IMG/VR virus record: IMGVR_UViG_2534682252_000039
Length of the DNA stretch: 61,732 nucleotides
DNA from: a virus
Lineage: Duplodnaviria; Heunggongvirae; Uroviricota; Caudoviricetes
Strand: one strand, 5' to 3'
Made by a program: the position numbers and the translations under genes. The stretch's first letter is position 1, and every line of letters begins with the position of its first letter. Below are positions 3,673 to 57,670 of this stretch, in pieces. A model generated the notes under the pieces. It saw only the letters and a list, made by a program, of their open reading frames with translations. It had not been told where the DNA came from and did no database searches.

Positions 3673-4290
3673 ATGTACGGTTTGAGCATTATGAAGCCGG
3701 ATGGCAGCGTATGGATAAGTCCAGGTTTTACGCCGCAGTGTCTGATCAACAAAGGCACCATACCGGCGACTGAAAAGTCTTTTTTTAAAACATCAATCCC
3801 GTCAGGCAAAAGTTGTTTTTTCTTTATCAGAACAGAGAAGAAGGCCGATGTCATGTACACGCATGAACAGATTGATGGATATCATGCACTAAGGCTTCAT
3901 GTAATTGTCAGGGGAACGAACCCTGGTGTTACGACGGTTTATGCTTTCGCGAATATGGTTACTCCACCTTCTGAGTATGGTATCGCCATGTATAACCCGG
4001 ACGGTGAGATGATTTATCATGGCGAAATGATGCTGCTTGACGCGAAGTTAATACCTGTTGATATCAAATTTGAAAAGGACCTTGGATATCCATGCGCAAT
4101 CATGCCTGCACTGGTCGGGTATTATAACTGGAAAAGAACTCCTTATGATCGACCGATTTATACCACATCCACTGGTGCTACAGGAAATAAAATATATTCC
4201 TGTGAGCATTATTCCGGTGGTGCAACATGGGATATTCGAAAGCCGTATATAGATAAGGTCCTGGTTATTAATACATCAGTATATGATTAG
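3673..4290 (+). CDS. Hypothetical protein with YG-x-x-I/M-Y/K repeats
   Basis: MYGLSIMKPDG and EYGIAMYNPDGEMIY repeats; low GC. Confidence 0.4.
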   Translation: MYGLSIMKPDGSVWISPGFTPQCLINKGTIPATEKSFFKTSIPSGKSCFFFIRTEKKADVMYTHEQIDGYHALRLHVIVRGTNPGVTTVYAFANMVTPPSEYGIAMYNPDGEMIYHGEMMLLDAKLIPVDIKFEKDLGYPCAIMPALVGYYNWKRTPYDRPIYTTSTGATGNKIYSCEHYSGGATWDIRKPYIDKVLVINTSVYD

Positions 4291-4380
4291 TTGAAGCGAG
4301 TCTTTAATATTCATTTAAAATGTCTAAAAAGATGTATTATTAAAAAGTTTAGCGTGTTATCTGAATACAGGATATCTTAA

Positions 4381-8682: not shown

Positions 8683-8715
8683 TTCACGATATTCCATTAA
8701 TACCATTTCCTGATG

Positions 8716-8740
8716 CCCGGCCATTGTGCCGGGTTTTTTT
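8716..8740 (+). terminator. Intra-operon hairpin with T7 run (possible attenuator) between gene 4 and the giant gene
   Basis: CCCGGCcattgtGCCGGG + TTTTTTT; overlaps the first in-frame ATG at 8713. Confidence 0.5.
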
Positions 8741-8751
8741 ATGGAGTCTGT

Positions 8752-11700: not shown

Positions 11701-14700
11701 GGGGAGAGCATAAAAAAAGTACGACACAGTGTATCGGAAATGCTGAACGGAACGGTCAGCGCGAAACGCCTCGCAGAATGGATGGAAGGCAGAATGCCCT
11801 CCCGTTACGCGGATACCTGGCAACTGTTACGCACTCTGCCACCCTCACAGATGGACAGGGCTTCTGCTTATCGGGTGGTATCGGGTGTGTATCAGGCGGC
11901 AGGAGGGAAGCGTTACGATCCGCCACAGAAACTTTATTCACTGCGCAATAAGGACAATAAGGGGAGTAACCTCTTTTTCTCGGAAAGCAGGGATGAATTA
12001 CTGGCAAAGGCGAAAGTCTGGTTTGCAGAGCAGGAGGAAAAATCACAGGCGAAAGGTGATGAAAAAACAGCACCGTCACCGGATGACAAAATCCGCTTTG
12101 ACGTTTACCGGAATACCCGCAGTGGCGATATTTTTATCGCTTACGGTAAAAACAAAATGCGGGTGAGAGGTGGCTTTAAGTCAGCCAGTGATGCGCGTAA
12201 GTACATTGATTCACATCGTGATGAGCTTGTTCGTCATGTGAAGGAGATGCGGGAGATTTCGCGTGAGGAGCAGCGCAACGCCACCAACCGCGACCGTACC
12301 GGACCAGAACGCCGCAAGGGGAATGTTTCACCGGAGCAGTTCAGTGATGCGTTTGGTTTCCGTGGTGTGCAGTTTGGTAACTACGTGGAAGGTCCGCGTC
12401 GTCAGGCTGATTTGAACCGGGCTTATGACTCGCTGCATGACCTTGCGGAAGTACTGAATGTACCGACAAAAGCGCTTTCCCTGAACGGTCGTCTTGGCCT
12501 GGCATTTGGTGCCCGTGGTAAGGGTAAGGCGGCGGCACACTATGAGTCAGGTGAGGTGGCAATCAACCTGACAAAAGGTAACGGACCGGGTGCGCTGGCG
12601 CACGAATGGTTCCATTCTCTGGATAATTATTTTGGTCGTTATGACGTTTCCAATGACGGGAAAATTACGTCAGGTGGCGACTTTATGACGGAAGCACAGC
12701 GTGTCAGGCGCATATTTAAAGACGGCAGGTATGTTGATGCTGAATATCCGGTACGTCAGGAGGTTTACGACGCTTTTAAAGGTGTGATTCAGGCCATTAA
12801 AAACAGTGACATGCCGCGTCGTTCAGCGCTTCTCGATGAGGTGCGCTCAAAACCGTACTGGTCAACGGATGTTGAAATGGCGGCACGTGCCTTTGAGCGT
12901 TATGTTCAGGATAAGGCGCGTATGGCTGGCGTGGAGAATGATTATCTGGTCAATATCCGTAAGGCACCTGAGCACAACACAGATAACACCTACGCTTATC
13001 CGACGAATGCGGAACTGGATGGCGGTATTCGTGAGGCATTCGATCACCTGTTCCGCACCCTGAAAACCCGTGAGACGGACAAGGGCGTTGCGTTTTATTC
13101 CCGTAAGGGCGTTACCCGCACACCTGAAGGTAATCTCATTTCGGATGTTAACCGTAGTGCGGAAGCCAAAGGCAGCCCGGTCCCGCAGGTTGAAGCGGTT
13201 GCCCGTGGCGTGATGAGCGGCATTAAGGACAGTGACCTGAAGGTCCGTGTGGTGAAGTCACAGAAAGAGGCTGAAGCGCTGGCGGGTGAATTGTTCGATG
13301 GTTACGGCAGGGTGCACGCATTCTATCGTCCGGATAAACGAGAAATTGTCCTGGTGGCGGATAACATCCCTGACGGGCGGACCGTTCGCGAGAAGCTGCG
13401 TCACGAGATCATTCACCATGCCATGGAGCATGTTGTCACACCAGCGGAATATCAGACGATTATCAAAACCGTGCTGAAAACCCGCGACAGTGATAACGTC
13501 ACCATCCGTGAAGCCTGGCGTAAGGTTGATGCTTCCTATGGTAAGGAATCACCGGAAGTACAGGCGGGTGAATTTCTGGCACATATGGCGGAGAAACAGC
13601 CGAATAAATTCGTGGCGGCATGGGAGCGTGTTGTTGCCCTGGTCAAAGGGGTACTGCGTCGTACGGGGTTACTGAAGCCGACGGAACTGAACGATATCAG
13701 ACTTGTTCGCGAGACCATCCGTACGTTAGGCCAGCGTGTGCGGGAAGGTTACACGCCGCGTGAGGATGGCGCGGGCGCATCGTTTCAGTACTCCCGTAGT
13801 GGTAAACGTGATCCGTTCAAAGTGCCGGAAGGTGAGGGCGAGCGTTATCGTGATGACCTTGCCAGAATGATGAAATCTCTGCGCACCACAGATTTAACGG
13901 TAAACATCGGGCGTACGCCGCCGGTATTGCGTCACCTTGGTGCACCGGATTTGCCGCTGGTTATTTCCCGCGATACTGTGCGGAAGGCCACCAATGGTGT
14001 GAAACATGTGGTGCCGATGGATGTTATCGAGAGACTACCGGAACTGATGCACGATCCGGATGCAATTTACCGCTCAGCGACAGAAAGAAATGCGGTTGTG
14101 ATGCTGCTTGATGCCGTGGATAAAAATGGTGATCCGGTGGTGTCAGCGGTACACATGAAGGCTGTCCGGTCGCGTCTGGAAATCAACAAGGTAGCTTCTG
14201 TTTACGGTACAGAAAATGGAAAAAAACTGAAGAGTATGGAAATGACCGGGTTAACGTTGTACCGGAGAGAAAAATTAAGCCGCGATAACCTTCTGCACAG
14301 AGGGCTCCAATTGCCCAAAGGGGAACATTCTTATCGCGGCTCTGCGGATAAAATACTCTATCCTGAAGATATTCGCAAGGGGCCGTATTACTCCCGTACC
14401 AGCAGTCTGACACCGGAAGAGACAATTGCATCGCGTTTTGTGCGCCAGATGCAGGATAAATTCCAGGTGCTGAAAGCTGTTCAGGAGAATATCCGTAAAA
14501 CTGGCGGCAAAGTGGACGACAGTAACAACGCTTATATGGCGGAAGAACTCTTCCACGGGAAGGCGGAAAACGACCTGAACGTGATGAAGGAGCGCTACGT
14601 TCAGCCACTGGCTAAATTACTGGCGGACTACAAAATTGCGCAGGCCGATCTGGATGAGTACCTCTACGCCCGTCACGCGCCGGAACGTAACGCGCATATC

Positions 14701-18593: not shown

Positions 18594-18989
18594 TCATTGA
18601 TTCACCTTCTGCTCAATATTTTTAAGGTCATTTTCCGCATACAGTATTGCAGTTCTTGCTGCCCGCAACCGTGCTTTGGTGTTCTTTTCTTCACGCTCGA
18701 GGCTGGCAACAGATTCTCGGAGCTGATCGTGTCTGTTATGAAGCTGTCTAATCTCTCTCACCACAGCCTCACCATCGTTCGCACACCGCAGAACATACTG
18801 AAAAGGGTCCACAACACATCCGCACTGCAAGCACAGGATAACGTGATCCTGTTCATGAACCTCAATGGCCCGATGCTTACAGCTCTGTTGTGTGTAGTTT
18901 TTTCTGCCAGTTACTGTAATGTTCAGCAGCTTCTCTTCATCGCGCTTTGGCTGCACCAGTGTGATGATATTATCGCCTTCATTTTCCAT
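18594..18989 (-). CDS. Hypothetical Cys-rich / coiled-coil prophage protein
   Basis: Start MENEGDN overlaps upstream stop; CxxxxxC...CLQCGC motif. Confidence 0.45.
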   Translation of the reverse strand: MENEGDNIITLVQPKRDEEKLLNITVTGRKNYTQQSCKHRAIEVHEQDHVILCLQCGCVVDPFQYVLRCANDGEAVVREIRQLHNRHDQLRESVASLEREEKNTKARLRAARTAILYAENDLKNIEQKVNQ

Positions 18990-19648
18990 CAGTTCACCTC
19001 CTGCGGCGGTTCTGGTAGCGGCATCCAGTGTGACGGTTTCCACGACGCACCAGGAATTATCCACCCATCATTAGCGTCAGGATGCCCCGGGATGTAAGTC
19101 GCCCACTTCATTCGCCAGTCACCTTTCCTGTCAAACTCCACGGCAACAAGAACGGCTGTTTTGGTATCCGGCATTCGCTCACTACAACTTATCCAACCAT
19201 CCGGAGTTACCGGAGAGTTGCCAGACAGCGCATTCTGCAACCGTTCCAGCTTAACGTATTCCTGAACCCTGTTTCCGTCGCACGCCTGAAGCCATTGCTC
19301 AGCCTTTTGCGCATCAGTGTGAAAGGCACAAGTGCGACCGTCATCAAATTGCATTTCGTAGAGGTTAGCAATCTGTTCAAACTGCGTGTGTGGCAACTTG
19401 TAAGTTTGGCTTACGAGTTCGGCTTCCAGTTCTGCTATGCGCTTCTCTGATGCTTCAAGTAACGCCTGCTTATCGCGTAGCGCTTCTTCCAGTTCAGCAA
19501 CATGGCATTCACTATCAATAAGGTTGTTCTCTGCTGCTCCCAGCTCAACTCTCAGCTTCCCAACCGTAAGCGCAATCTCCTCGTTCTCCTGGTCGCGGCG
19601 TTTGATGTATTGCTGGTTTCTTTCCCGTTCATCCAGCAGTTCCAGCAC
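18989..19648 (-). CDS. DUF551-domain protein with Ea22-like coiled-coil N-terminus
   Basis: C-terminal ...PSHWMPLPEPP typical of DUF551. Confidence 0.6.
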   Translation of the reverse strand: MLELLDERERNQQYIKRRDQENEEIALTVGKLRVELGAAENNLIDSECHVAELEEALRDKQALLEASEKRIAELEAELVSQTYKLPHTQFEQIANLYEMQFDDGRTCAFHTDAQKAEQWLQACDGNRVQEYVKLERLQNALSGNSPVTPDGWISCSERMPDTKTAVLVAVEFDRKGDWRMKWATYIPGHPDANDGWIIPGASWKPSHWMPLPEPPQEVN

Positions 19649-20423: not shown

Positions 20424-21053
20424 TTAGAATTCGAATTGCCTTGCCCGCAGGCTTTTCAGCATTGGTCTGGCCCGCTGAACTACGAAACTCGACTGGTCAA
20501 GCCGTGCCGCCTCTCTCAGTAGCACATCTCTGTTCTTCGTCACCATGTAGATGGTCTCAAACGCAATGTCATACAGCTTGTTCGTGTATGAGGAGTTCAG
20601 CTCTTTCATGATCGGATACAGGTGTTTGCTGAGGTCCTGGGCTTTTTCCATCCAGAGTTGCATGTAGCAGAGGAGGATGATTTCCTCGTCTGTGAATTGT
20701 TGCTGTGGTTCTGCTTGTGCCGACTGCATGTTGCGAAGTTTCTTTTCGCACTCGATGAAGTATCTGCGTATCTGTCGGCCTTTTTCGTTACGCTCTACCA
20801 TCGCCGTTTCTTTGGCTGTATCGAGGGTAAGGTGGTAGTCTTTTTTCCCTCGCCCATAACCTATTTCCCGTTTCTGGGAAATAGCTATATAGTCCTGATT
20901 TTCAACGAATCCGTACTCTTCAATACGTTCTGTAATCCACGATGCAAAGCGTTTACCTACTCCAAGAAAAGTATGTAAATCACGGGCATTAACGAGAAGA
21001 GTGGTTTCGTTGGCGATAGTGCCGTTGAATACGGGGATGAGTTGACTGGTCAT
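20424..21053 (-). CDS. Phage antirepressor-like protein (AntA N-terminal domain)
   Basis: N-terminal IPVFNG...ARDLHTFLGVGKRFASWITERIEEYGFVENQDY. Confidence 0.65.
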   Translation of the reverse strand: MTSQLIPVFNGTIANETTLLVNARDLHTFLGVGKRFASWITERIEEYGFVENQDYIAISQKREIGYGRGKKDYHLTLDTAKETAMVERNEKGRQIRRYFIECEKKLRNMQSAQAEPQQQFTDEEIILLCYMQLWMEKAQDLSKHLYPIMKELNSSYTNKLYDIAFETIYMVTKNRDVLLREAARLDQSSFVVQRARPMLKSLRARQFEF

Positions 21054-22201: not shown

Positions 22202-22735
22202 TTATGGCTCCTGATGAACAACTTCTGGCGGTGGAACGTCAACCAACCTTCTGCTTAATAACGCATTGAGTAAAATCGCGCCAAAGGTTGCTGTACCGAT
22301 TCCTCCCAACGTAAAACCGCCCAGCGTGAGAGCAAAATCACCCGCGCCCAGCACTAAGGTTACTGCGACCATAATCAAATTACCGTTCTGGCTTAAATCG
22401 ACACGGTTTTGTACCCATATCCTTGCGCCTGCGACGGCAATCAGCCCGAACACAACAATTGATGCACCACCAATCACCGCGGCCGGAATGGTATGAATCA
22501 GCGCGCCAAATTTCGGTGAAAAGCCCAACAGCATGGCGATGACGGCAGCAGCAACAAACACCAGCGTCGAGTAGACTTTTGTCACGGCCATCACACCGAT
22601 ATTTTCAGCATAGGTGGTGACGCCGCTACTGCCGACAGAACCAGAAAGCATCGTTGCCAGACCATCGCCTACGAATGCTCGCCCCATATACGGGTCCATA
22701 TTGCGTCCGGTCATCCCGGCGACCGCCTTGAGATG
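22202..22735 (-). pseudogene. rutG: NCS2-family nucleobase permease, 3' portion only (rutG-like), 5' part displaced by the Mu-like prophage
   Basis: Multi-TM C-terminal region ...TTYAENIGVMAVTKVYS...; in-frame codons run up to ~22733 and then hit phage-end sequence; wrbA-ymdF-rutG neighbourhood as remembered for E. coli. Confidence 0.6.
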
Positions 22736-22863: not shown

Positions 22864-23601
22864 TCACTCACTCTCTTTTAAACCAGTTTTAACTGTTTGT
22901 GGTTTTGGGTAAGGCTGGACTTTGAATAGCTTTGTGTTGAGGCGTTTTCTGGCCCTCTTGTTCAGAAACCGGATGTAACGAAACTGACGGAATTTATGAA
23001 CACTGGCTCTGTCGATATTAGCCCTCAGATGTTCACCTCGCTGTCCGCCTCGTTTAATGGCATTCCTGCAAATCTCGTGATACCACTCGCCATCAAGTTC
23101 ATAGAATGTTGATTCGTGGCTGCCTACATAATCAAAATTGCTTGCCTGATACACGACACCAAGACAGCCACAACGCTCATCTGCAAACGACTGAACCCAC
23201 TGTACCTGCGGATAAAGCTGCCTGATTAGCTTGAGCGCGTAACTGATTGCCCTTGATTCGGAGTTTCTCGGCATACAGTCATGCAGCCATAACCGGTTAA
23301 GCTCCATATATTCACGGTTCCGCGTGCCCGTTACGACGCGTGCACCACTGTTTGGATTAAGGGCATAGCCCCATTGCATTACGCCAACCAGCTCCCGTTC
23401 TGAAAATATGCCCAGATGAAGGTAGGAGTTATTTACGAAACGGTGGCTGTAATGTTTATTGACGATGACCAGTCTGGCCAGCCAGCAACTTATTGTCTCA
23501 ACCCGCAACTCACGGGAGCCATAACCAACGATATTGTCGTTATAGCGAATAAGTTCAGGCGTGCTGATGATACGGGATGTGACTTGCTTTCTGTTCCCCA
23601 C
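22864..23601 (-). CDS. mom: Mom-like DNA modification protein
   Basis: Size and position after com at the phage right end; overlaps com 3' end. Confidence 0.8.
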
Positions 23602-24975: not shown

Positions 24976-27015
24976 TTATTCTGTTACCGCTTTTTTCACT
25001 TCCACCACAATGCTGTCAATCAGCACCGGGTAAGTTGCATTTTTTGTGATATCCGTTACGCGGAGTTTGTCCACCGGGAAAGTTCCTACTGGTGACTGCG
25101 TCAGGGTAAACGCGGCACCATCCTGACCATCAATAACCGGAATAACCTGAAGGCTGTTATTTCCTGCAAAACGGAAGGCCAGCGTATGCCATTCATTATC
25201 AAATGCACCAAAGGTTCCCAGTTTCTGGTTATTTGTTGCCACTTTTGCATTGTGGTACATCACATTCAGGTCTTTTGCGTCTGTCTGGATGTAGAACGAT
25301 GCCAGCAGATTATTCCCTGCATCCCCTGTCAGGGTGACACCCTGCGGCAGAGAGGAAACCGGCCAGTAAAGCGCCATGACATACTGGTTTGCCACCAGGT
25401 CGCCCGGTACTTTAAAACGACAACTGATTAAACCACCATTTTTCAGCAGTTCAGCACCAGTACCGGCATCATGATCCAGATACCAGGATGATTTACCTGT
25501 TTCCTTGGTCAGTTTCATTGCCTTACCACCTGTGCCTCCTGTATCACTGATAATTTCAGCTTTACCGCCAGCCGGCTCCCAGCCCTGGGCTTTCAGATTT
25601 CCTTCTGACTCACTGACACGGTAAGACAGCAGTGTTGTGGTTACTGCTTCAGTTTCTGAAGGTGACGGCACTGGTGCTTCAGTTTCAGAAGATGGAACAT
25701 CGGCTTTTACTGTGGTTCGCCCCGCATGAGTCAGAACTGCCGTGGCCAGACGGTCGGAAATAATCCCACGACGTGCCCATGAACTGAAATGGCTGGCCCG
25801 GTCCGTAGATGTCCAGGTGGCGGCACTGTTACGCCACGTTGAGCCGTAATAACCAATGGATTCAATATCCGGGTCTTCTGCCGGATTGTTGGTGGGTACA
25901 TTCGCGCCATTTTCATCTGTCATTAATGGGACGAAATGAATGTTTTTATCTGTTTTATTTTTGTAGCCGTCATAGATTGCCTGGTATGCCTGTTCGTTTT
26001 TCTGTTTCCAGAAATACGTGGTATCACCACAAATCCACGGAACGCCAGCAGCACTGCCACCGGTACACTGTTCCGCCTGTTCAGCCAGGTCTGCGCGGAA
26101 TTTTTCCACCATCGCCAGAAACAGCGCAGAATGCTCCGTCGGCTTCGCATCAATATCAAACTCGCCCTGCATCCACACCACAGCAAGCAGGCGGTTTTTC
26201 GGGTTCTTCGCCAGTGCCGCTTTTGTCCGGCTGATTAAGTCCTTATACAGCGGCTTATCCACACCCCAGCGGGCTGAGTCCTCTGAAGCACCCGTGCTGT
26301 CACTGTACGTGCCGTCAGCACCCGCCGTGAATGCAGAACCACCACGGCAGCAGGGAACCAGCAGAATCCCCGCATCTGCCGGAATAAACGGCAGCAGTTT
26401 TTTGGCAATGTGAAGCCCCTGACCCACGGTGCCATATTGCCCTTTAGCCACATCCGCTTTCGGGTGATTTTTTCCACTCATATCCTGCACATCATGCAGA
26501 CAGTGGTCGGCCAGAATGATGTCGTTATACTGACAGGCTTTACCTCCCGGCGTGACTGTACTGCGACGGGCTAACTGCATAATACGCGGTTCGGGGCGGT
26601 CATATGTCTCCGGCAGTGGCAGACCTTCACCGTAAGCCATACCGTTTGACTGACCAGCAAGAACCACCACGTAATACCAGGAAGGGGAGCTGGAAGCAGT
26701 TTCATTTCCTGACGGACGGGTATGTGTTTCAGCATTATCCCAGTCTGACGGTTCAGCAGTACCGGCAACATCAGCACTTAACGGAATGACCGCACCAATA
26801 CCCGCTCCGGTAATTTCCACACTCGGATCACCGGATACTGGCCTTACCCACAGGCAATCCCGTGTATTAAAACTGATGAGACAGTCAGCAAATGTCATTC
26901 CTCCTTTTGTTTCGGCCGGAGGAAAGGGAGCCTCAAGAAATGCCGCTGTACCACCGGAAACTTTAACAGTAAAGTTTCCGGGCATTGATGATAGTTGAAC
27001 CCATTTGGACGTCAT
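24976..27015 (-). CDS. SASA/SGNH-type carbohydrate O-acetylesterase with C-terminal beta-rich domain (NanS-p-like)
   Basis: Catalytic-block motifs VLAGQSNGMAYGE and VWMQGEFD; C-terminal ~250 aa beta-rich. Confidence 0.7.
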   Translation of the reverse strand: MTSKWVQLSSMPGNFTVKVSGGTAAFLEAPFPPAETKGGMTFADCLISFNTRDCLWVRPVSGDPSVEITGAGIGAVIPLSADVAGTAEPSDWDNAETHTRPSGNETASSSPSWYYVVVLAGQSNGMAYGEGLPLPETYDRPEPRIMQLARRSTVTPGGKACQYNDIILADHCLHDVQDMSGKNHPKADVAKGQYGTVGQGLHIAKKLLPFIPADAGILLVPCCRGGSAFTAGADGTYSDSTGASEDSARWGVDKPLYKDLISRTKAALAKNPKNRLLAVVWMQGEFDIDAKPTEHSALFLAMVEKFRADLAEQAEQCTGGSAAGVPWICGDTTYFWKQKNEQAYQAIYDGYKNKTDKNIHFVPLMTDENGANVPTNNPAEDPDIESIGYYGSTWRNSAATWTSTDRASHFSSWARRGIISDRLATAVLTHAGRTTVKADVPSSETEAPVPSPSETEAVTTTLLSYRVSESEGNLKAQGWEPAGGKAEIISDTGGTGGKAMKLTKETGKSSWYLDHDAGTGAELLKNGGLISCRFKVPGDLVANQYVMALYWPVSSLPQGVTLTGDAGNNLLASFYIQTDAKDLNVMYHNAKVATNNQKLGTFGAFDNEWHTLAFRFAGNNSLQVIPVIDGQDGAAFTLTQSPVGTFPVDKLRVTDITKNATYPVLIDSIVVEVKKAVTE

Positions 27016-27114: not shown

Positions 27115-27675
27115 TTATTTTTCCGAAACGCTCGCAGGATAATAACGATAAAGGGTTGAAAGACCGATATCAAAAATAAGTGCCACCTGTCTTCGACTGA
27201 CACCCCCGGCCAGTAAACGCCCGACCTGCTCGTATTGTTCCTGCGTGAGACGGCGGGGTCTGCCGCCGGTTCGTCCCCTTTCACGGGCAGCTGCAAGACC
27301 AGCCCGTGTCCGTTCGACAATTAATTCACGCTCCATTTCTGCCAGCGCACCCATTATGTGAAAAAAGAAGCGCCCCATGGGGGTTGACGTATCAATGTTG
27401 TCAGTAAAACTACGAAAATTTATCCCCTGTTGCTGTAATTCATCTGTCAGCGCAACAAGGTGGCGCATACTGCGCCCCAGCCTGTCCAGTTTCCAGACCA
27501 TCAGCGTGTCACCGGGTTTTAGTTTCTTCAGTGCCCGCTTCAGTCCCGGCCGCTGTGTCGTTTTACCACTCATTTTGTCTTCAAAAATCTGCTCACATCC
27601 TGCACATTCCAGCGCATTTCTTTGTAAACCTGTGTTCTGGTCATTTGTTGATACGCGTATATAGCCAATCAGCAT
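27115..27675 (-). CDS. gin: Serine DNA invertase (Gin/Hin/Pin/Cin family)
   Basis: MLIGYIRVSTNDQNTGLQ with catalytic Ser; C-terminal HTH; adjacent to inversion site. Confidence 0.9.
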   Translation of the reverse strand: MLIGYIRVSTNDQNTGLQRNALECAGCEQIFEDKMSGKTTQRPGLKRALKKLKPGDTLMVWKLDRLGRSMRHLVALTDELQQQGINFRSFTDNIDTSTPMGRFFFHIMGALAEMERELIVERTRAGLAAARERGRTGGRPRRLTQEQYEQVGRLLAGGVSRRQVALIFDIGLSTLYRYYPASVSEK

Positions 27676-50466: not shown

Positions 50467-50967
50467 TCAGACTTTCGGCAAGTCGTAGCGACATAACCAT
50501 TCATCCGCCGAACGGCGGGCCTCAAGGCCGGGAAGTTTCACCCCCTTTGAATAAATCCAGCGGATATACTGCTTACAGGACGCGGGCATCTGCCCGGCAT
50601 TGATCAGGCGCAGAAGCGTGGAGTTGCGGAAGTTCGTTTCACCAGCCCAGAAGATCCACGAAGCCAGCGCCACCGTCTGACCACGGGTAAGCGGCACCTG
50701 AACACGCCGATCAATGGCCGCAAAGGCCCATTTCATGTCCTTTTCCAGTAGTTCCAGGCATTCTTCATCCGTCAGGGTCATACCCGGTTTCACATCCGGG
50801 CCGGTATGGCCGTAACAGATGGTGGGTGTACCGGTGGGATCGATATACGTGGAGTTTTCTTTCCCTTCCCAGTAACCGGTGTAATGCGTGGCAATCGTGA
50901 ACGTCCCGGCACCGGCCAGAACAAGGGCAATCAGCTTTTTACGCAGTGGTGCGGGGAGTTTTGGCAT
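50467..50967 (-). CDS. lys: SAR endolysin (GH24 lysozyme)
   Basis: Weakly hydrophobic N-terminal anchor LIALVLAGAGTFTIA; motif YWEGKENSTYIDPTGTPTICYGHTG. Confidence 0.85.
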   Translation of the reverse strand: MPKLPAPLRKKLIALVLAGAGTFTIATHYTGYWEGKENSTYIDPTGTPTICYGHTGPDVKPGMTLTDEECLELLEKDMKWAFAAIDRRVQVPLTRGQTVALASWIFWAGETNFRNSTLLRLINAGQMPASCKQYIRWIYSKGVKLPGLEARRSADEWLCRYDLPKV

Positions 50968-51038
50968 TGTTACGCTGTCTCATGATGTTCTCTGAGTCAG
51001 CGTAACGGTGAAGGAAAGGCGGCAGGCTTTGCGGAATA

Positions 51039-51464
51039 TCAGAAAAGTGGCGGTTGCGTTCTTGCCAGATGCAGACGGCGCTGTTCACGTATGACGGTAT
51101 AAATCTGGGTTTCTGACATCCGGTAATGTCGGCGAAGGGATTCAATTTTCTCGCCCCGGTCCCAGCGCGAAAATATCTCATTGTTTCGCAGCTCGGCAAA
51201 GAGAGATTCCCCGACCGGCAGGTAATAACCCCGTCCGCCCATATAGGCGGCCTGAGCCGCAGCCACCTTGCGTGCCAGTTTACCGGCCAGTACCGGCTCA
51301 ATCCCCTGACGCTGAAGTTCTGCGCCGGTGACTTCAACCAGTTCTGACAGGGTCCGTGGCCAGTTCTTTTTGAGAACATCATCAGGGATGTCATCAAGGC
51401 GGTCGATAAGGGCGTGCAGTTGCTCACTGTCACCACCAAACATGCTCATCTGAGTTTCTGCCAT
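51039..51464 (-). CDS. mor: Mor/C-family transcriptional activator
   Basis: 141 aa between gemA and lys; C-terminal HTH. Confidence 0.7.
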   Translation of the reverse strand: MAETQMSMFGGDSEQLHALIDRLDDIPDDVLKKNWPRTLSELVEVTGAELQRQGIEPVLAGKLARKVAAAQAAYMGGRGYYLPVGESLFAELRNNEIFSRWDRGEKIESLRRHYRMSETQIYTVIREQRRLHLARTQPPLF

Positions 51465-51533
51465 ATCAGCCTCCGGTTCTCGCGTTCCCGGTAAGTTTAA
51501 AATAAAAATCCCGCGCTGTGGCGGGATTTGGGG

Positions 51534-52043
51534 TTAACGGGGAAGTGATTTTTCATACTGCCTGCAAACGGCGTCATACCCCATCAGCGTGCGTTCGGGC
51601 ATTCCCATCGCGGCCAGCATTTTGCGGCGGTGCCATCGCTTGAGACGCTCCAGCACATCTGAGGCCAGGGCGGGGTGTTGCTCCAGCCACTGCCAGTTTG
51701 CCACACCTTCGCCACCGTTCTGCGCGGCCGTCTGCGATTTCACCCAGCGGTTAAGGGCGGTTTCCGCACCATCAGAGATAAAGCCCTGCCGGTGCATCAC
51801 CCTCCAGATGGCACGAATTTTGGCGGTCACCGTACCCGGTTTTAAGGCCTGGTTAACCGGCTTCTGGCGCACTTTAAAACCGCGTTTTTTGAAAACATCC
51901 AGCACGCGGGATAACTCATCCGGTGACATATCCCGGCAGCTGGTTTTGCCGGTGGCTGCCAGCAGCGCGGATGTATAAGTCTCATCATCCAGGGCAAGCT
52001 CGCGCTTTGCCACATGAATGGCGGATATCAGTTTTCCTCTCAT
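51534..52043 (-). CDS. gemA: GemA (Mu gp16-like)
   Basis: Size and position upstream of mor. Confidence 0.7.
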   Translation of the reverse strand: MRGKLISAIHVAKRELALDDETYTSALLAATGKTSCRDMSPDELSRVLDVFKKRGFKVRQKPVNQALKPGTVTAKIRAIWRVMHRQGFISDGAETALNRWVKSQTAAQNGGEGVANWQWLEQHPALASDVLERLKRWHRRKMLAAMGMPERTLMGYDAVCRQYEKSLPR

Positions 52044-52336
52044 ACCGTATTTACCTTTTTACGGACATGGAAAGCCTTTTCTGCCTCATCCCACCGGGCA
52101 TGGTGTGTTGGTGGAATAATCATTATGTGCCAGCCATCTCTGGTTGTTATTCGGCAGAAAAATTCACCGCTATATAACACAATGGCCTGCTGAATGAGCG
52201 CATCAGCCGCCCGTTCAACCGGATGTCTTTTATCAAAAAAGCAGATGATTTTTCGACATAACCACCGGGTAATAACAAATGCGCCGAAAAAGGATGTGAT
52301 ATATAAGCACCAGAACAACAGAGAACTATTGTCCAT
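52040..52336 (-). CDS. Hypothetical membrane-anchored protein (AT-rich accessory cluster)
   Basis: N-terminal TM helix; low GC. Confidence 0.4.
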   Translation of the reverse strand: MDNSSLLFWCLYITSFFGAFVITRWLCRKIICFFDKRHPVERAADALIQQAIVLYSGEFFCRITTRDGWHIMIIPPTHHARWDEAEKAFHVRKKVNTV

Positions 52337-52523
52337 TATCTTTCTCCTTATTCACTCTTCTGCGGCATTCGGCACAGTCATCAGGGCTTTCAAATGTATC
52401 CGGCTCGCGATTATGAGCCAGATATAACCACCGTCCACATATACTGATATTTTCGCCTGTTTTAAAAAAATGATGCTTCCTGGCCATTAGTGGCCGCGCC
52501 CATCCAGCGGGTAGACTATTCAT
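52326..52523 (-). CDS. Small Cys-containing protein (AT-rich cluster)
   Basis: C...CxxC pattern. Confidence 0.35.
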   Translation of the reverse strand: MNSLPAGWARPLMARKHHFFKTGENISICGRWLYLAHNREPDTFESPDDCAECRRRVNKEKDNGQ

Positions 52524-52851
52524 TTGCTTTATCCTCCATACTGGAGAGAATCATATGTATTAATGTCGGGCGTGGAGATATACGCATTTCATTAAGCGTC
52601 TGAAGGGCAGCAACAGCTGCCTGTTTATCGGTGCCTTTGGCAATTTCAGCAAGAGAATGCACAATCCATAACGGGCTTAACGCTACGGCTGAATGCAGAA
52701 TCATGTCATCCATAATAATTTCTGGCATATCCCGTTTGTCACATTCTTTATCCATAAAAGAAACAATTTTTTCTGCATCTTCCGGTTTCATGCCTCCGGC
52801 GATGAGAATTTTACGATATTCATAAGACGATCTTAATTCAATACTCATCAT
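52516..52851 (-). CDS. Hypothetical protein (AT-rich cluster)
   Basis: ORF track. Confidence 0.45.
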   Translation of the reverse strand: MMSIELRSSYEYRKILIAGGMKPEDAEKIVSFMDKECDKRDMPEIIMDDMILHSAVALSPLWIVHSLAEIAKGTDKQAAVAALQTLNEMRISPRPTLIHMILSSMEDKANE

Positions 52852-52863
52852 TCACCTGCCTGT

Positions 52864-53256
52864 TTAATCAGTTTCCAGTGCTTTGCTACGGGCAACAGCC
52901 TCACACTCAAAAAATACCGACTCCGGCACACGCTCCTTTAATTCACGAACAAGAAAATCATTAACGAGTTCATGACGTCTTATATTTCTTTCCTTTTCCT
53001 CCTGGCGCAATACAGCAAGGCGGTATTCAACAGTCCGGCGTTGTTTCTGAAAGACAGCCAGTGCTTTTCTGGCAGAGTTACGCCATGTATCATCGCCACA
53101 GGGTTCGTATTCAAGCTGAAATTTAATCTCTTCAATGGTTTCTTTTATTTTTGCCAGCAAGCTAAGACAGTCGCTGATTGTCTTCAGTTTTTCATTATCA
53201 ATATAACTTCTCACGCATTCACCTCCCGTCATTCCGGTAAAGCTGAAATATGGCAC
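52864..53256 (-). CDS. Hypothetical coiled-coil protein (AT-rich cluster)
   Basis: ORF track. Confidence 0.45.
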   Translation of the reverse strand: MPYFSFTGMTGGECVRSYIDNEKLKTISDCLSLLAKIKETIEEIKFQLEYEPCGDDTWRNSARKALAVFQKQRRTVEYRLAVLRQEEKERNIRRHELVNDFLVRELKERVPESVFFECEAVARSKALETD

Positions 53257-53540
53257 CAGTGCGTCACCTGTCCGTCCTCATCTTCAAGGCAGGCTCCGGT
53301 TTCTTCATCAATAAAAAAGCCTTCATACCCCATATGGCCGATGCGCAGTTCCTGTTGGTCACCATACTGAACAATCAGCACGACAGCCTCCATATCAGGC
53401 GGGAAAGCATCATTCAGTGAATGCCAGGGATAACCGCGCAAATCCCCGAAATAAACACCGGTCAGCGTTCCGCCACAGACCGGCATTCCGACGGTACACA
53501 CAAGGGGTTCATCTGATTCAACAAATAATGTCGTTATCAT
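53229..53540 (-). CDS. Hypothetical Mu-like early protein
   Basis: ORF track. Confidence 0.45.
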   Translation of the reverse strand: MITTLFVESDEPLVCTVGMPVCGGTLTGVYFGDLRGYPWHSLNDAFPPDMEAVVLIVQYGDQQELRIGHMGYEGFFIDEETGACLEDEDGQVTHWCHISALPE

Positions 53541-54088
53541 GGCATTAATTCCCGTAATACAACATCTTCGGCAGTCCGACGACGGTGATAAATAAAACTC
53601 ACCGTGCCCTCGGATAATTCAAATTTCTCGCCGATTTCCCTAAAGGTAAGACGCCGTGGTGATTCAGCATCCCGTAATTCACGAATAAGACGAACATCAT
53701 CGTCAGGTATGCGGGTGAAGGGCAGCAACTCTCCGTATTTTTTCATGCTTACGCCAATATATCGCGCCCGATTGTGGACAGAATCCCGGTCTCGCCCCAG
53801 ATATTCTCCTATTTGCTTACCGGTCATTGTTCTGGCATTTTTTCGGATAAATTTATCTTCATCAGGTTTAAATCTGAGGCGTTTGCATTTGAGCAACTCC
53901 GGGTAAGTACCGCGTAATAAAACAATCCGGTTATGTACACCCCAGAAACTTCTTTTTATCCTGACAGCAATATCCTTAACCGGGGTGGATGGATAAAGCG
54001 CAATCAGCAGCGCATCTTCTTCAGGTGTCCATGCGCGAACATGAGCGGGTGCACGGCCTTTTCTCCCCATGGGTTGTAATATCATCAT
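53537..54088 (-). CDS. Putative DNA-binding early protein with two HTH-like segments
   Basis: ...MTGKQIGEYLGRDRDSVHNRARYIG... and ...LTFREIGEKFELSEGTVSFIYHRRR. Confidence 0.5.
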   Translation of the reverse strand: MMILQPMGRKGRAPAHVRAWTPEEDALLIALYPSTPVKDIAVRIKRSFWGVHNRIVLLRGTYPELLKCKRLRFKPDEDKFIRKNARTMTGKQIGEYLGRDRDSVHNRARYIGVSMKKYGELLPFTRIPDDDVRLIRELRDAESPRRLTFREIGEKFELSEGTVSFIYHRRRTAEDVVLRELMP

Positions 54089-54091
54089 GCA

Positions 54092-54607
54092 TCACCCCCT
54101 GACTCGCTTTTCAGCAGCATAAAACTCATCAGACAGAATTTCGGTCATTTTCTGTTTTGCGGGTTTTACGCCGCACTGAAGGTAAATCACATCGTCAACG
54201 CAGAACCACTCCACAGGGCCAAACAGGATTGCCGAGAAATCAATGCCCAGCCAGAACAACAGTGCATCGGTTCTGGCATACGTGACGGGCGAATATTCAC
54301 GCCACAGACTGTTAAGTTCGTCAGAGGCAACGCGCAGGGCTTTGGGAATACGTGATGTGCGCGGTGTGCAGCTCCAGCCATTCGACGCAGTTGGTTTTCG
54401 CCATAAATCACGATGAAAAGGATATTTGTCCTCCGTAAAACGCAGTCCCTTAAAACAAAAACCACTGATACTGAATTCAAATACCGACCGGCACGCAACA
54501 TTCAGCACGGCCTCAAGGCGTTTCGCCTCATCTTTTACCGTCTGGCAGTCCTGCTGGTATTTTTGCCACGCAGCCAGCGCGGAAGGGTTTGATGTTTTAA
54601 AGAACAT
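54092..54607 (-). CDS. Hypothetical Mu-like early protein
   Basis: ORF track. Confidence 0.5.
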   Translation of the reverse strand: MFFKTSNPSALAAWQKYQQDCQTVKDEAKRLEAVLNVACRSVFEFSISGFCFKGLRFTEDKYPFHRDLWRKPTASNGWSCTPRTSRIPKALRVASDELNSLWREYSPVTYARTDALLFWLGIDFSAILFGPVEWFCVDDVIYLQCGVKPAKQKMTEILSDEFYAAEKRVRG

Positions 54608-55140
54608 TACGCCACCTCCGCTGATATCCCGGCAGGCGCGGCCGTCCGGTCAACAATCAGGTAACGCAGAACGCGCGAGGTGATATTCCAGCCGCTTAAA
54701 CCGCAGATAATGACGCCCAGGCGGATGTCGATATACGACATCACAAACTGGGGCACGCCTTCTTTCATGGCCTGCTCATCAACTTCAGCCACCACATAAA
54801 CGGTTTCACAGGTCAGCACGCCCTGAGCAAATTCCCACGCCATCGACGGAATATCATGCCCTTCAATCCACGGCAGGGATTTTCTGAAGCTGCACCACTG
54901 AACATCATCAGCCGCAGACTCCTGGCTGCATTTGCGACGAACCGGCTGCACCGGGCGGGGACGCGGAATATCATAAAAACCGTTACATTCCGTCAGCACG
55001 CCTGCATCAACCGCATCACGCAGAAAATAAACCATGGAGGATGGCGGCATATTCATTTTTTCAGCCAGAATACCGCAGGTCAGACGTCCGTAAATACGCA
55101 GCCAGTTTTTAACCCCTTCAAGCACTTTTGCATCAATCAT
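54607..55140 (-). CDS. Hypothetical Mu-like early protein
   Basis: ORF track. Confidence 0.5.
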   Translation of the reverse strand: MIDAKVLEGVKNWLRIYGRLTCGILAEKMNMPPSSMVYFLRDAVDAGVLTECNGFYDIPRPRPVQPVRRKCSQESAADDVQWCSFRKSLPWIEGHDIPSMAWEFAQGVLTCETVYVVAEVDEQAMKEGVPQFVMSYIDIRLGVIICGLSGWNITSRVLRYLIVDRTAAPAGISAEVA

Positions 55141-55143
55141 GAA

Positions 55144-55686
55144 TTATTCCTCCGTCAGCGCCACATATTCAGAATGTTTAATCTCCTGGCATTCTTCAGG
55201 AATACCCCCTTTTATTTCCCTGCCATAAGTTCCTACTTTAAACACCACGCACAGGGCATCACGGGAGAGTGACGGGGTCCACCAGGAGTCCGTGTTAAAC
55301 ATGGAGGGGATTCTCATTACCCCCAGCTTTTCACAGAGCCAGACAAGGAAATCAGGACGCTTTCTTAACTCGCGTTCAGCGGCTTCAACCATTGCGGCAA
55401 TCGCCGGACCTTCAGGGCATGACTCATCAGGTCTGGCAATAAAGCACGGTCCGCCCCCGATAAAAGCCACATCATCGCGCTTACGCCAGCCCGCAGGCAG
55501 AGAACCAGAAAAATAAAACTCACTGATTACGTCCATGGCGAACGGCTTTAAGCGCAATCCGGCAGCGCCTGTATTTTTCAGTAATGCCCGAAGAATACTG
55601 TTGCGTAGCGGTAAAACATCCCGCTGATATTCGGTTAAATATTTATTTGTGTACACTATGTCTAATTTGAAATAAAAATATGCCAT
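55144..55686 (-). CDS. Hypothetical Mu-like early protein
   Basis: ORF track. Confidence 0.5.
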   Translation of the reverse strand: MAYFYFKLDIVYTNKYLTEYQRDVLPLRNSILRALLKNTGAAGLRLKPFAMDVISEFYFSGSLPAGWRKRDDVAFIGGGPCFIARPDESCPEGPAIAAMVEAAERELRKRPDFLVWLCEKLGVMRIPSMFNTDSWWTPSLSRDALCVVFKVGTYGREIKGGIPEECQEIKHSEYVALTEE

Positions 55687-55783
55687 GTTTCCGATTCCTT
55701 ATTTTCAGCTTTCAGGCGCAGGCAGTCCCCTGACGCGAGCGCCATAATTAAAACGATGTGATATTTAAAGATTTAATGTGGTG

Positions 55784-56314
55784 TTATTTATTCAGTCCGG
55801 CGTCCTGTTCAAAAGGCTCGACATAAAAACTTTCAGCGCCTTTATTCACCTTTATACCGGCAATGCCTTTCACCGCATCCGGCTCCGCCAGGACGGCTTC
55901 CTTGTTCACTTCCTCTTTCGTGCGGATGAATCGCTCAAGCCCCATAAGGCGCAGCATTTCAATCACGCCTTCCACATCACGGCTGACGCTGCATGATGGA
56001 TTTCCCAGCCGCCATGACACCGTGCCGGTGGTCAGATTGGCAGTTTTTGTTTTGCCGCCGTTCGTCAGCTCATCTCGGTTGGTTTTGCACCAGTCCTGAA
56101 TCCCCTTAAAAAGCACTTTGATTTCTTTTTTAAGGTTTTCAATTTGCGGCGTATAACGGGCGGTGATTTCTGCCACTTCATCATTCATCGCCGTTTCCAG
56201 CCGCAGCGCCTCTCGCTGAATATCGCCCAGGGTGCGGATATCGCGGCTGACCTCTTCGCGGGTCTGCGGTGCAGCCTCGGCTGCGGCCTTTAATTTTGTA
56301 ACGCGTTTTGCCAT
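55784..56314 (-). CDS. gam: Host-nuclease inhibitor Gam (Ku-like)
   Basis: MAKRVTKLKAA...RLETAMNDEVAEITARY...NRDELTNGGKTKTANLTTGTVSWR...FIRTKEEVNKEAVL matches remembered Mu Gam. Confidence 0.85.
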   Translation of the reverse strand: MAKRVTKLKAAAEAAPQTREEVSRDIRTLGDIQREALRLETAMNDEVAEITARYTPQIENLKKEIKVLFKGIQDWCKTNRDELTNGGKTKTANLTTGTVSWRLGNPSCSVSRDVEGVIEMLRLMGLERFIRTKEEVNKEAVLAEPDAVKGIAGIKVNKGAESFYVEPFEQDAGLNK

Positions 56315-56325
56315 TTTGTTTTTCC

Positions 56326-56619
56326 TTATTGCAGTGTGCCTGATGCTTTATGCACGCGGTGGCGTTTAATGATGGCATCCGCCCCAAAAGCCTGTACAGA
56401 TGCCTGAAATTCCGCTGAGAGAAACTGAATAATTTCAGGACTGTGATACTGGAGAATACTTACATAAACGTCACAGAGTGACGTCGGCCTGTTATTCGTA
56501 TCACGTTCTGTTTTTACATCCACACCAATCTTTTCATGCACTTCAACACAGTCATTGCCTGCCGGTTTTTCGTCATGCGAAACATGCTTAAATTCAAAAA
56601 TAACGCGTACTTTGCTCAT
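56326..56619 (-). CDS. Small early protein, tandem paralogue 2
   Basis: MSKVRVIFEFKHV... similar to the next gene. Confidence 0.5.
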   Translation of the reverse strand: MSKVRVIFEFKHVSHDEKPAGNDCVEVHEKIGVDVKTERDTNNRPTSLCDVYVSILQYHSPEIIQFLSAEFQASVQAFGADAIIKRHRVHKASGTLQ

Positions 56620-56623
56620 GGAA

Positions 56624-56896
56624 TTACCCCTGCTGATTAAATTCATTACCTTTAATAACCCCGGAACGCATGCTCATATCTTTCATGAGCGCACTGGCTT
56701 TCATTGCCACAAGTTCAGCAAAGTCTCTGCTTTCCGCGAGCATAACCACCCCAAAAATCATGGCAGGTCCATCACCTTTCTGCTTTATCCCGGTTGAACG
56801 TATGTCCAGACTTATCCCCATGCGCACTGTTCCATCCGCGTTTTTATGGATAACGTGCTCCTTGTATTCGAAAATAATGCGTACGACTTTACTCAT
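56624..56896 (-). CDS. Small early protein, tandem paralogue 1
   Basis: MSKVVRIIFEYKEHV... Confidence 0.5.
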   Translation of the reverse strand: MSKVVRIIFEYKEHVIHKNADGTVRMGISLDIRSTGIKQKGDGPAMIFGVVMLAESRDFAELVAMKASALMKDMSMRSGVIKGNEFNQQG

Positions 56897-57174
56897 CCTC
56901 TGGTCCTCGTTCTGTTTGGATAACTGACCCGGCGTCTGACCTCACGGCAGAACCGAATCATGGCATTAAAGGCTTCTTCCTCCGTCACCGCTTCCGGTAT
57001 CCCCGGAACCAGTAACTGCTCCTGTTCATCACGTCCATGACGCGCCATAACCTCAATCACATGCCGTACCGTGGCAGGCTTTCCGGCAACTATCGGCAAT
57101 GCACCTTCCGGCAGGACGTAACCAAACTCAATAAGACCACTCGACCACGCCCATGCAATGAGATTTTTTTTCAC
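56893..57174 (-). CDS. Hypothetical early protein
   Basis: ORF track. Confidence 0.45.
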   Translation of the reverse strand: MKKNLIAWAWSSGLIEFGYVLPEGALPIVAGKPATVRHVIEVMARHGRDEQEQLLVPGIPEAVTEEEAFNAMIRFCREVRRRVSYPNRTRTRG

Positions 57175-57175
57175 C

Positions 57176-57442
57176 TCACACCTCCCAGTAAACCGTGCAG
57201 CCGCTGATGCGGGTGGCCTTCACACGGCGGCGCAGGCCGTTGGTCTGTATGGTGATTTCAATTTCACCGGTTCCCTGCACGTTGCCTACCGGCGGCGTGG
57301 TTTTCAGTGCAAAACGTTGCGGATAGCGCTTACTGCGTTCCAGTACCGCACCGGCAAGTTCGGTCAGACGGCGCGCGCTGTTCAGGGAGTCGAATAAATT
57401 CATTTTGTTACCGCAGGATTGCATATTCATATAACACCTCAT
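57176..57442 (-). CDS. Hypothetical early protein
   Basis: ORF track. Confidence 0.4.
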   Translation of the reverse strand: MRCYMNMQSCGNKMNLFDSLNSARRLTELAGAVLERSKRYPQRFALKTTPPVGNVQGTGEIEITIQTNGLRRRVKATRISGCTVYWEV

Positions 57443-57670
57443 TTAGCTGACTTGTTTCGCACCAACAGAACGGCATATTCCGCTGTAAACTTCTGTCGCA
57501 CCTTCGCGATCAAGTCCGGCAGATATCACCATTCGTGTGCGGTCATTAAATTCAAAAAGTAAATCGCCACATTCTTTATTTTCGGCCAGTGAAATCACCT
57601 TCACGTTATCGAAATTAACCAGGTAAAAGCGTCCGTAAATATCAGGAATATAAAATACCGCCATAATCAC
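57443..57670 (-). CDS. Hypothetical early protein
   Basis: ORF track. Confidence 0.45.
   Translation of the reverse strand: MIMAVFYIPDIYGRFYLVNFDNVKVISLAENKECGDLLFEFNDRTRMVISAGLDREGATEVYSGICRSVGAKQVS

Follow-up and report, generated by a model that had tools for sequence, protein, structure and literature searches.

What is encoded in the stretch of small genes that lies between gemA and the better conserved early genes of a Mu-like prophage, and what could these genes do for the phage? The question is raised by the region 52040–53540 of a DNA of 61,732 nucleotides from a virus of the class Caudoviricetes (IMG/VR record IMGVR_UViG_2534682252_000039), to which we refer as the window. A Mu-like prophage, encoded on the minus strand, takes up the right half of the window and extends from a Mom homologue (22864–23601) to a repressor-like open reading frame (ORF) that ends at the window edge. 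The prophage is of the type of Sp18 of Escherichia coli O157 Sakai, which has been predicted to be intact (PMC2669165). An earlier note, made from the sequence alone, had described the region as an AT-rich accessory cluster and had proposed it as a place for anti-defence or exclusion genes. Our analysis leads to an explanation which we hold with moderate confidence: in the Sp18-type E. coli Mu-like prophage, the cluster forms the distal, variable part of the early operon ("semi-essential" region), which is subject to horizontal exchange, and the products of the cluster would be small proteins that bind host factors and are made early in lytic growth.

Five genes in the distal early operon

The region is filled by exactly five co-oriented ORFs on the minus strand, enclosed by a gene for a helix–turn–helix (HTH) protein, o6, and by gemA. 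In the order of the operon these are o5 (53229–53540, 103 amino acids), o4 (52864–53214, 116 amino acids), o3 (52516–52848 or 52851, 110 or 111 amino acids), o2 (52326–52523, 65 amino acids), and o1 (52040–52336, 98 amino acids). For o4 the mechanically called ORF begins with a GTG at 53256 and comprises 130 amino acids; we use the ATG at 53214, which is found behind the ribosome binding site GGGAGGTGA and is identical to the start in RefSeq. The number of small ORFs, previously given as four or five, is thus five. RefSeq annotates the same five ORFs as hypothetical proteins in an E. coli chromosome of 99.9–100% identity, and they are annotated in more than 100 E. coli genomes. Each of the five proteins is assigned to a PHROG of its own, all of unknown function.

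As the ORFs are small and without known domains, and as frameshifted variants of o2 are present in the databases (P0031–P0033), they could in principle be decaying or spurious ORFs in AT-rich filler DNA. We computed the ratio of nonsynonymous to synonymous polymorphism (pN/pS) over the distinct alleles in the fetched loci. The ratio is 0.19 for o5, 0.15 for o4, 0.14 for o3, 0.13 for o2, and 0.09 for o1 (within allele), no full-length allele has an internal stop, and the range of 0.09–0.19 equals that of the gemA, gp11, and gp12 homologues. This result effectively refutes the idea of spurious ORFs. The Shine–Dalgarno sequences, the coupling of the genes, and the homologues at 30–70% identity which each gene has in other phages also speak against it.

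The five genes are packed very tightly. The start of o5 overlaps the stop of o6 and the stop of o1 overlaps the start of gemA, in both cases within an ATGA; the start of o2 overlaps the end of o3 by 8 nucleotides and the start of o1 overlaps the end of o2 by 11 nucleotides. The only gaps, between o5 and o4 and between o4 and o3, measure 12–15 nucleotides and contain GGAGG-type sites, so that no gap is longer than 15 nucleotides. In a consensus scan the promoter-like sites were at chance level (6 against 6.2 in shuffled sequence). Of the terminator-like hairpins in the scanned stretch the one directly after gemA (51506–51529, minus strand) combines the longest stem, 9 bp, with a T-rich tail. 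This strong, intrinsic-terminator-like hairpin lies between gemA and the single Mor/C-like activator and probably marks where the early transcript with the cluster stops. No RNA family was found by an Rfam scan of 50500–57500. Since there is no room for control elements of their own, since promoter-like sites are at chance and since a terminator-like hairpin follows gemA, we infer that the five genes are translationally coupled and silent in the lysogen. Induction would lead to their synthesis along with that of the transposase, MuB, and Gam, from a single transcript ending at the hairpin downstream of gemA.

A different expression would apply if the genes were "morons" for lysogenic conversion or superinfection exclusion that the resident prophage expresses; o1, for instance, would be an exclusion protein of the membrane. 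On the coding strand of the AT-rich DNA there are several sigma-70-like hexamer pairs, o1 is membrane-anchored, and one variant of the slot harbors an opposite-strand DUF2513 gene for which independent expression is possible. Nevertheless, we consider this explanation very improbable. The genes are co-oriented and packed within the early operon without a terminator–promoter unit of their own, the promoter-like sites do not exceed the chance expectation, PADLOC gave no hit, and the soluble domain of o1 would face the cytoplasm according to the positive-inside rule. Thus, of the earlier suggestion of anti-defence or exclusion genes in an accessory slot, the accessory and exchanged nature of the slot is supported (see below), whereas a repressor-controlled early operon in which the genes are set with no intergenic space makes exclusion in the lysogen unlikely.

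An exchangeable slot of low GC content

The GC content of the cluster is 0.443, as compared to a mean of 0.550 (sd 0.038) for 1.5-kb windows of the prophage and of 0.570 (sd 0.015) for its late region. Among the 1.5-kb windows of the prophage 0.7% are as low in GC as the cluster, and the minimum (0.441) falls inside it. The GC content at third codon positions is 0.35–0.47 for the cluster genes and 0.58–0.64 for A, B, and gemA. The visibly lower GC content that had been remarked upon is therefore confirmed by calculation, and the cluster is not typical of the prophage but is its lowest 1.5-kb stretch. Low GC content extends beyond the cluster, as o6 and several small genes upstream of gam also have values of 0.42–0.46, and it therefore characterizes the accessory early genes as a group. 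In addition, homologues at other places are below the GC content of their flanks, at 23 of 25 loci for o3 and at 30 of 42 loci for o2. The genes therefore bring part of the AT-richness with them.

When related prophages are compared, the slot between the HTH gene and gemA resolves into three exchangeable units, namely o5–o4, o3, and o2–o1. The window has the form o5–o4–o3–o2–o1. In FRIK2455 an ORF of 61 amino acids is found instead of o5–o4, and in OkiPb01712 an extra pair of 61 and 75 amino acids precedes o5. The prophage of E. coli AF39 (NZ_OZ547136.1) has kept o5–o4–o3 and carries, directly upstream of gemA and instead of o2–o1, the opposite-strand DUF2513 gene (1371–1718 of locus L005, plus strand). 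The three main combinations also occur in IMG/VR contigs. While o3 is kept in all E. coli-type prophage variants, o5–o4 is missing from about half of the E. coli relatives, and the content of the slot varies among prophages which are otherwise more than 90% identical. The natural loss of o5–o4 or of o2–o1 in relatives suggests that these genes are dispensable. The DUF2513 gene of AF39 is the only slot gene with possible expression independent of the early operon. A PADLOC scan of the alternative slot genes (DUF2513, the ORFs of 61 and 75 amino acids, and gp15 and gp16 of the phage SfMu) was negative.

The five genes have five independent histories, as seen by a tblastn search of 50,697 phage records with the concatenated proteins, by scans of viral contigs, and by look-ups of the genomic context. 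Among the phage records the combination present in the window is confined to E. coli Mu-like prophages. The differences in content together with the homologues in unrelated phages bear out the description of the cluster as an accessory slot, a part of the early operon that is low in GC and subject to horizontal exchange.

The 1.5-kb region is 99.9% identical to the chromosomes of E. coli 2010C-3347 and of O157:H7 strains, and the stretch 51039–55140 is 100.0% identical to that of 2010C-3347. The region is found in 232 of 5426 complete E. coli genomes, and at least 80% of it is present in 114 of 233 matching E. coli records; all five genes are carried by 114 genomes. The carriers, about 4% of the complete E. 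coli genomes, are mainly Shiga-toxigenic strains from cattle and human sources.

The position of the cluster invites comparison with Mu. The early operon, all on the minus strand, has the order ner-like gene, A, B, small ORFs, gam, homologues of gp11 and gp12, o6, o5 to o1, gemA, terminator, and Mor/C-like gene; thus, the transposition genes and gam precede the cluster, gemA and the mor-like gene follow it, and all are on one strand. By tblastn the identity to the Mu proteins is 57% for Gam, 67% for gp11 (o8, 54607–55140), 55% for gp12 (o7, 54092–54607), 43% for GemA, and 49% for MuB, and no match was found for o1 to o5, o6, and o9. We also considered whether o3 or o2 might be diverged forms of the Mu genes gp13, gp14, or gp15, which is rejected by hhalign probabilities of at most 0.25%. 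As there is neither a tblastn nor a profile match, Mu and the phage of the window differ in the genes that they carry between gp12 and gemA. Both phages have in common the operon, the strand, the flanks, and the presence of small ORFs of unknown function between gp12 and gemA; they differ in that Mu has gp13, gp14, and gp15 at the place of the HTH gene and o5 to o1. The Mu record further annotates a separate semi-early promoter before gemA, whereas in the window gemA overlaps o1.

Beyond Mu the picture is different. About 30 diverse Mu-like viral contigs, Yersinia Mu-like phages, and SfMu (gp14) have homologues of o3 with 32–51% identity between a gp12-like gene and gemA, and two distant homologues of o5, P0051 and P0054, are encoded between the Gp11_C and GemA genes of other Mu-like contigs. 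The statement of the earlier note that there are no obvious Mu counterparts hence holds for Mu itself, by tblastn and by profiles, and does not hold for the wider group. Given these positions of the o3 and o5 families, the cluster is in part drawn from a pan-Mu-like pool of early genes and in part mobile cargo. SfMu gp14 (ORF14), like the equivalents of the Yersinia phages, occupies the same position as o3, to which the SfMu protein has 34% identity. Only o3 is common to both slots, and gp13, gp15, and the opposite-strand gp16 replace o5, o4, o2, and o1 in SfMu. The SfMu protein has been reported to be absent from Mu and D108 and to be of unknown function (PMC4406740).

The protein o3 (phrog_1988) has the conserved motifs LIAGG, LSPxWI, and DKxAAVAAL. 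Comparison of the contigs indicates that, within the slot, its gene is the one that stays constant; among the early genes of Mu-like phages it is semi-conserved, and Mu lacks it. No relation to Pfam or PDB entries was found, and hhalign gave none to gp13 and gp14 of Mu. The label "HEAT repeat domain-containing", which NCBI gives to one cluster of these proteins, could not be substantiated by profile searches. No relatives of o3 were found in species-representative genomes with a scan pattern that was too specific.

The conserved position raises the possibility that the genes, o3 and o5 especially, are phage-intrinsic factors that act on phage proteins or phage DNA and tune transposition–replication or the switch from early to middle transcription. 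Arm, Cim, and Lig of Mu, which are genetically defined functions, offer a comparison. Besides the synteny of both families, the neighborhood of regulators (the HTH gene o6, gemA, and the Mor/C-like activator) and a purifying selection comparable to that of the core early genes argue for such a role. On the other hand, Mu is fully functional without all five genes, and SfMu ORF14 has no counterpart in Mu or D108 as mentioned above. In E. coli relatives o5–o4 is lost in about half of the cases and o2–o1 in others, and homologues of o2 and o4 are encoded by lambdoid and HK97-like phages, which do not transpose. We therefore regard a phage-intrinsic role of the cluster as rather unlikely.

Protein features and possible functions

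When the five proteins were compared with Pfam, NCBIfam, PADLOC, and PDB sequences, no family match was obtained, and the few hits were to generic helical or coiled-coil proteins. The PDB sequence searches were done with o2 alone and with profiles of o5, o3, and o4; in PADLOC no match of o1 to o5 was better than an E value of 0.035. Word-indexed homology searches with o5, o2, and o3 retrieved only close enterobacterial relatives that are unnamed and without domains. The features of the proteins themselves might give a hint what the cluster does.

The protein o5 (phrog_6925) is strongly acidic, with a pI of 4.05 and a net charge of about −16. An N-terminal piece of ∼36 residues is followed by a DUF551-like domain (residues 37–103) ending in VTHW...LPE. 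With Pfam PF04448 neither o5 nor its close homologues give a hit even at E values up to 10 (gathering threshold 22 bits), and the distant homologues P0051 and P0054 score below the threshold with 15.9 and 15.2 bits. The comparison of the o5 family with a DUF551 alignment by hhalign, however, yields a probability of 94.7% (E 5.8e-8, 63 columns, o5 residues 37–103). The reference alignment consists of five sequences, three of them confirmed or implied by Pfam. One is encoded in the window itself (18989–19648, minus strand), by a canonical gene with Ead_Ea22 and DUF551 domains of the Ea22 "V2" type of Stx phages. An N-terminal W...P motif and a C-terminal THW..P motif are visible in both alignments. 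Because of the profile–profile match and the sub-threshold scores of P0051 and P0054, with Pfam being silent on o5, we call o5 a distant DUF551-like protein and not a Pfam-defined member of this family.

DUF551 is a portable domain of unknown function which is known from Ea22-V2 of Stx phages (as the C-terminal domain), from YfdS of CPS-53, and from a MazZ pyrophosphohydrolase (PMC10834534; PMC4776307); it belongs to the early accessory regions of temperate phages (PMC10834534). With such proteins (Ea22-V2, YfdS, and MazZ-like fusions) o5 shares residues 37–103 and the THW...P ending. It differs from them by its sub-threshold score in Pfam, by its own N-terminal piece of 36 residues, by being a stand-alone protein, and by its much higher acidity: the net charge is −9 to −18 in the o5 family even at 31–37% identity, and −2 to −6 in the compared DUF551 domains. 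An exhaustive profile search for o5 retrieved 15 proteins out of 1.84 billion; the hits to fn3 and BNR repeats in this search were discarded as spurious repeat matches, and P0051 and P0054 were the informative ones. Close homologues are restricted to E. coli and Salmonella, and a homologue with ∼80% identity is present in a second Mu-like lineage that lacks o4. It could also be imagined that o4 and o5 are the halves of a split Ea22-like protein. This is rejected, as the o4 family compared with the Ead_Ea22–DUF551 protein of the window reaches a probability of 0.2% in hhalign, PF13935 gives no hit, and the gene order is reversed. Structure prediction, which had been recommended as a check, was carried out for o5 and o2 and is in both cases too poor for conclusions on function. 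The AlphaFold2 (AF2) model of o5 has a pLDDT of 55 and is all-beta, and a fold search in BFVD found nothing at E values up to 0.001.

The protein o1 (phrog_17269) confirms the previously proposed membrane-anchored protein. It has a single N-terminal hydrophobic stretch (residues 5–23, Kyte–Doolittle mean of 1.82 over 19 residues) followed by basic residues. According to the positive-inside rule these basic residues would place the C-terminal domain of ∼65 residues in the cytoplasm, where it is probably tethered to the inner membrane. Two alleles of o1 exist in otherwise near-identical prophages. Codons 1–32 have 88% protein identity with saturated synonymous sites (dS ∼2) and a dN/dS of 0.02, and codons 33–98 have 32% protein identity. 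Given the saturation of the synonymous sites the alleles are old lineages that have been exchanged by recombination. Judged by these substitution rates the helix is constrained well beyond what a simple anchor needs. Within the 50,697 phage records and the viral contigs o1 was found only in E. coli Mu-like prophages; relatives in species-representative genomes were not found, with a scan pattern that was too specific.

The properties of o5 and o1 bring us to the explanation that the units of the slot are dedicated counter-defence cassettes. According to this explanation the acidic o5 would serve as a decoy or as a mimic of DNA that blocks restriction or another nucleic-acid-targeting defence, o5–o4 and o2–o1 would be interchangeable modules matched to the defences of particular E. 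coli lineages, and o1 would target a membrane-embedded effector. Mu-type phages are known to invest in the protection of their DNA, as exemplified by Gam and Mom. The cluster is early-expressed by its position, its cassettes are present, absent, or allele-swapped between prophages of more than 90% identity, and the acidity of the o5 family exceeds that of ordinary DUF551 domains at low sequence identity. Moreover, a gene of the family Lar_restr_allev (PF14354) is found in the early region of a related Mu-like contig, and the DUF551-containing phage MazZ pyrophosphohydrolase has been cited as inhibiting host restriction enzymes (PMC10834534).

An anti-defence role of the cluster is plausible from this circumstantial evidence, that is, from the cassette turnover, the acidity of o5, and the Lar-family gene. 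Against dedicated cassettes, no similarity of o1 to o5 to a known anti-defence protein or family was found in Pfam, NCBIfam, and PDB, with no dedicated anti-defence library being searched. In addition, o3 and the o5 family are syntenic over large distances, unlike typical anti-defence genes with their fast turnover, and the alleles of o1 are ancient, as seen by the saturated dS, and do not reflect recent diversifying selection. The pN/pS ratio is low throughout, and acidity alone is unspecific. We therefore regard dedicated counter-defence cassettes as possible, though on balance unlikely. Small size, early expression, and strong acidity are properties that o5 has in common with DNA mimics of the Ocr or ArdA type, and o2 resembles Lar as a small Cys/His protein. 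However, none of o1 to o5 has sequence or profile similarity to these proteins, and o2 lacks the paired CxxC of Lar.

A particular version of this idea may be mentioned, although we consider it decidedly doubtful. The o5 family might be an acidic offshoot of DUF551 that serves as decoy or DNA mimic against a host nuclease or a nucleoid-based defence, with o5–o4 and o2–o1 as counter-defence cassettes. The helix of o1 might dock on a membrane-embedded host (defence) protein and the divergent cytoplasmic domain might set the specificity. If true, the decoy or mimic would be the first mechanism for DUF551, a widespread phage domain.

The Logan contig with the Lar_restr_allev gene (SRR25400173, L140) carries this zinc-ribbon gene at 4061–4297 (plus strand) just upstream of the gp11 homologue. 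On the same contig a Kil_protein gene follows MuB and an o5-family gene precedes gemA.

The remaining two proteins, o4 and o2, link the cluster to phages of other types. The helical protein o4 (phrog_6158) has the invariant motif LAVLRxEEKExN, and in the E. coli prophages o4 and o5 come and go as a pair. A heptad pattern in residues 7–34 is equalled by 6% of shuffled sequences, a crude test, and there are weak matches to coiled-coil and helical-repeat families. Coiled-coil proteins, as anticipated in the earlier note, are therefore weakly supported for o4 and not for o3. Homologues of o4 with 32–45% identity occur in the Hendrixvirinae (HK97-like) phages Fraca and AsXd-1 and in other viral contigs. 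In Fraca the gene is found directly upstream of the annotated excisionase and integrase, and AsXd-1 has unannotated ORFs of the same size at this place.

The protein o2 (phrog_2358) is the Cys-containing protein of 65 amino acids that had been pointed out before. It is basic, and H17, H18, C29, C50, and C53 are invariant in 13 sequences. The AF2 model (pLDDT 64) has strands followed by a helix (51–64) with C50 and C53 at its start, which suggests a putative zinc-binding mini-domain with the CxxC at the beginning of the C-terminal helix. A PDB fold search gave no significant match; the top non-significant hits are small zinc proteins. The homologues of o2 at 60–70% identity are mostly outside Mu-like phages. 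In a lambdoid contig (L028) one is encoded among small ORFs after a DnaB-type helicase, in the replication/nin region, next to a gene for a MazZ-like dATP/dGTP pyrophosphohydrolase with DUF551, and another one lies beside a DNA methyltransferase in a Klebsiella phage. The database copies P0031–P0033 have a frameshift after residue ∼22 and an unrelated tail, so that the gene occasionally decays. The accessory regions of lambdoid and HK97-like phages (exo–xis, nin) that contain the homologues of o4 and o2 resemble the cluster as packed, exchangeable, and early-transcribed sets of small genes, and they differ from it in phage architecture and mode of replication.

Taking these features together, we prefer the explanation in which the cluster makes up the distal, variable portion of the early operon and its products are small, non-enzymatic binders. 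They would act by stoichiometric binding of factors of the host or of competing elements early in lytic growth. Such binding would prepare the cell for replication by transposition, and the neutralization of host defences could be part of it. Stoichiometric binding of host factors appears most likely because of the small size of the proteins, the lack of catalytic motifs, the protein features described above, and the analogy to Kil, Gam, and GemA. These are among the dispensable, host-directed functions in the Mu region between B and mor, and they act by binding host factors. Likewise, Tip of D3112 and Aqs1 of DMS3 are small proteins from the early operon of Pseudomonas Mu-like phages that bind host proteins, although these phages are of a different lineage than the phage of the window.

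Several points weigh against this explanation. The searches described retrieved no functionally characterized homologue of any of the five genes. The term non-enzymatic binder relies on protein size and on the absence of motifs, with structural models of pLDDT 55 and 64. Promoter-like hexamers exist within the AT-rich coding sequence, so that some expression in the lysogen is possible. Finally, o3 and the o5 family keep their position across distant Mu-like phages, which would also fit a phage-intrinsic role.

Surroundings of the cluster and its meaning for Mu-like phages

The prophage has the order of late genes (∼57% GC), lysis block, Mor/C-like activator (51039–51464), and early operon. The activator is nearer to C of Mu (39% identity) than to Mor (27%). 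Downstream, the slot is bounded by the gemA homologue (51534–52043, minus strand; PF06252 GemA, 5e-30), the last gene of the early operon. The upstream border is o6 (53537–54088, minus strand), which encodes a basic HTH/Myb-like DNA-binding protein of 183 amino acids with a sub-threshold HTH match in Pfam. It is assigned to phrog_323 ("transcriptional regulator, D5-like") and named in RefSeq as DNA-binding, AsnC, or SANT/Myb-like. Relatives with otherwise near-identical prophages have an o6 allele of 72–73% identity. Another early gene, o9 (55144–55686, minus strand, 180 amino acids), is present in some relatives and missing from others and has matches of 23–40% in other Mu-like contigs.

The right end of the Mu-like prophage is marked by the Mom-family gene (minus strand). 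At 24976–27015 and 27115–27675 (both minus strand), an ORF of 679 amino acids with a SASA (sialate O-acetylesterase) domain and DUF6645 is placed between a Gin-like invertase and mom and appears to be cargo in the late region or right end of the prophage. Immediately outside, the ORF 22202–22714 (minus strand) resembles a xanthine/uracil permease over no more than the C-terminal third of the profile (positions 259–386 of 389) and may be a gene truncated by the insertion. The Ead_Ea22–DUF551 gene mentioned above and an AntA/P22-type antirepressor gene (20424–21053, minus strand) look like a lambdoid remnant just outside this end. The left part of the window contains a single ORF of 2806 amino acids (8713–17133, plus strand).

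The gene families of the cluster are already catalogued in RefSeq and in PHROGs and are uncharacterized. A literature search by the RefSeq accessions of the cluster proteins found no mention of them, and the papers on Sp18 and on Mu-like phages treat the prophage and not these genes. What sequence and profile comparison newly indicates is the relation of o5 to DUF551 together with its acidity, the build-up of the slot from three units, the synteny of o3 across Mu-like phages, the constrained helix of o1, the His/Cys set of o2, and the location of o4 homologues beside xis and int in HK97-like phages. As such, the cluster is ordinary phage dark matter that leaves the current understanding unchanged and would not surprise a phage biologist. 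The natural variants, however, allow direct comparison, as there are prophages with and without o5–o4, two alleles of o1, and slots with o2–o1 or with the opposite-strand DUF2513 gene. If any of the genes blocks a defence or a host process, this would add to the few known functions of the early region of transposable phages, and a function could be assigned to DUF551 as well as to PHROG families distributed over lambdoid and Mu-like phages.

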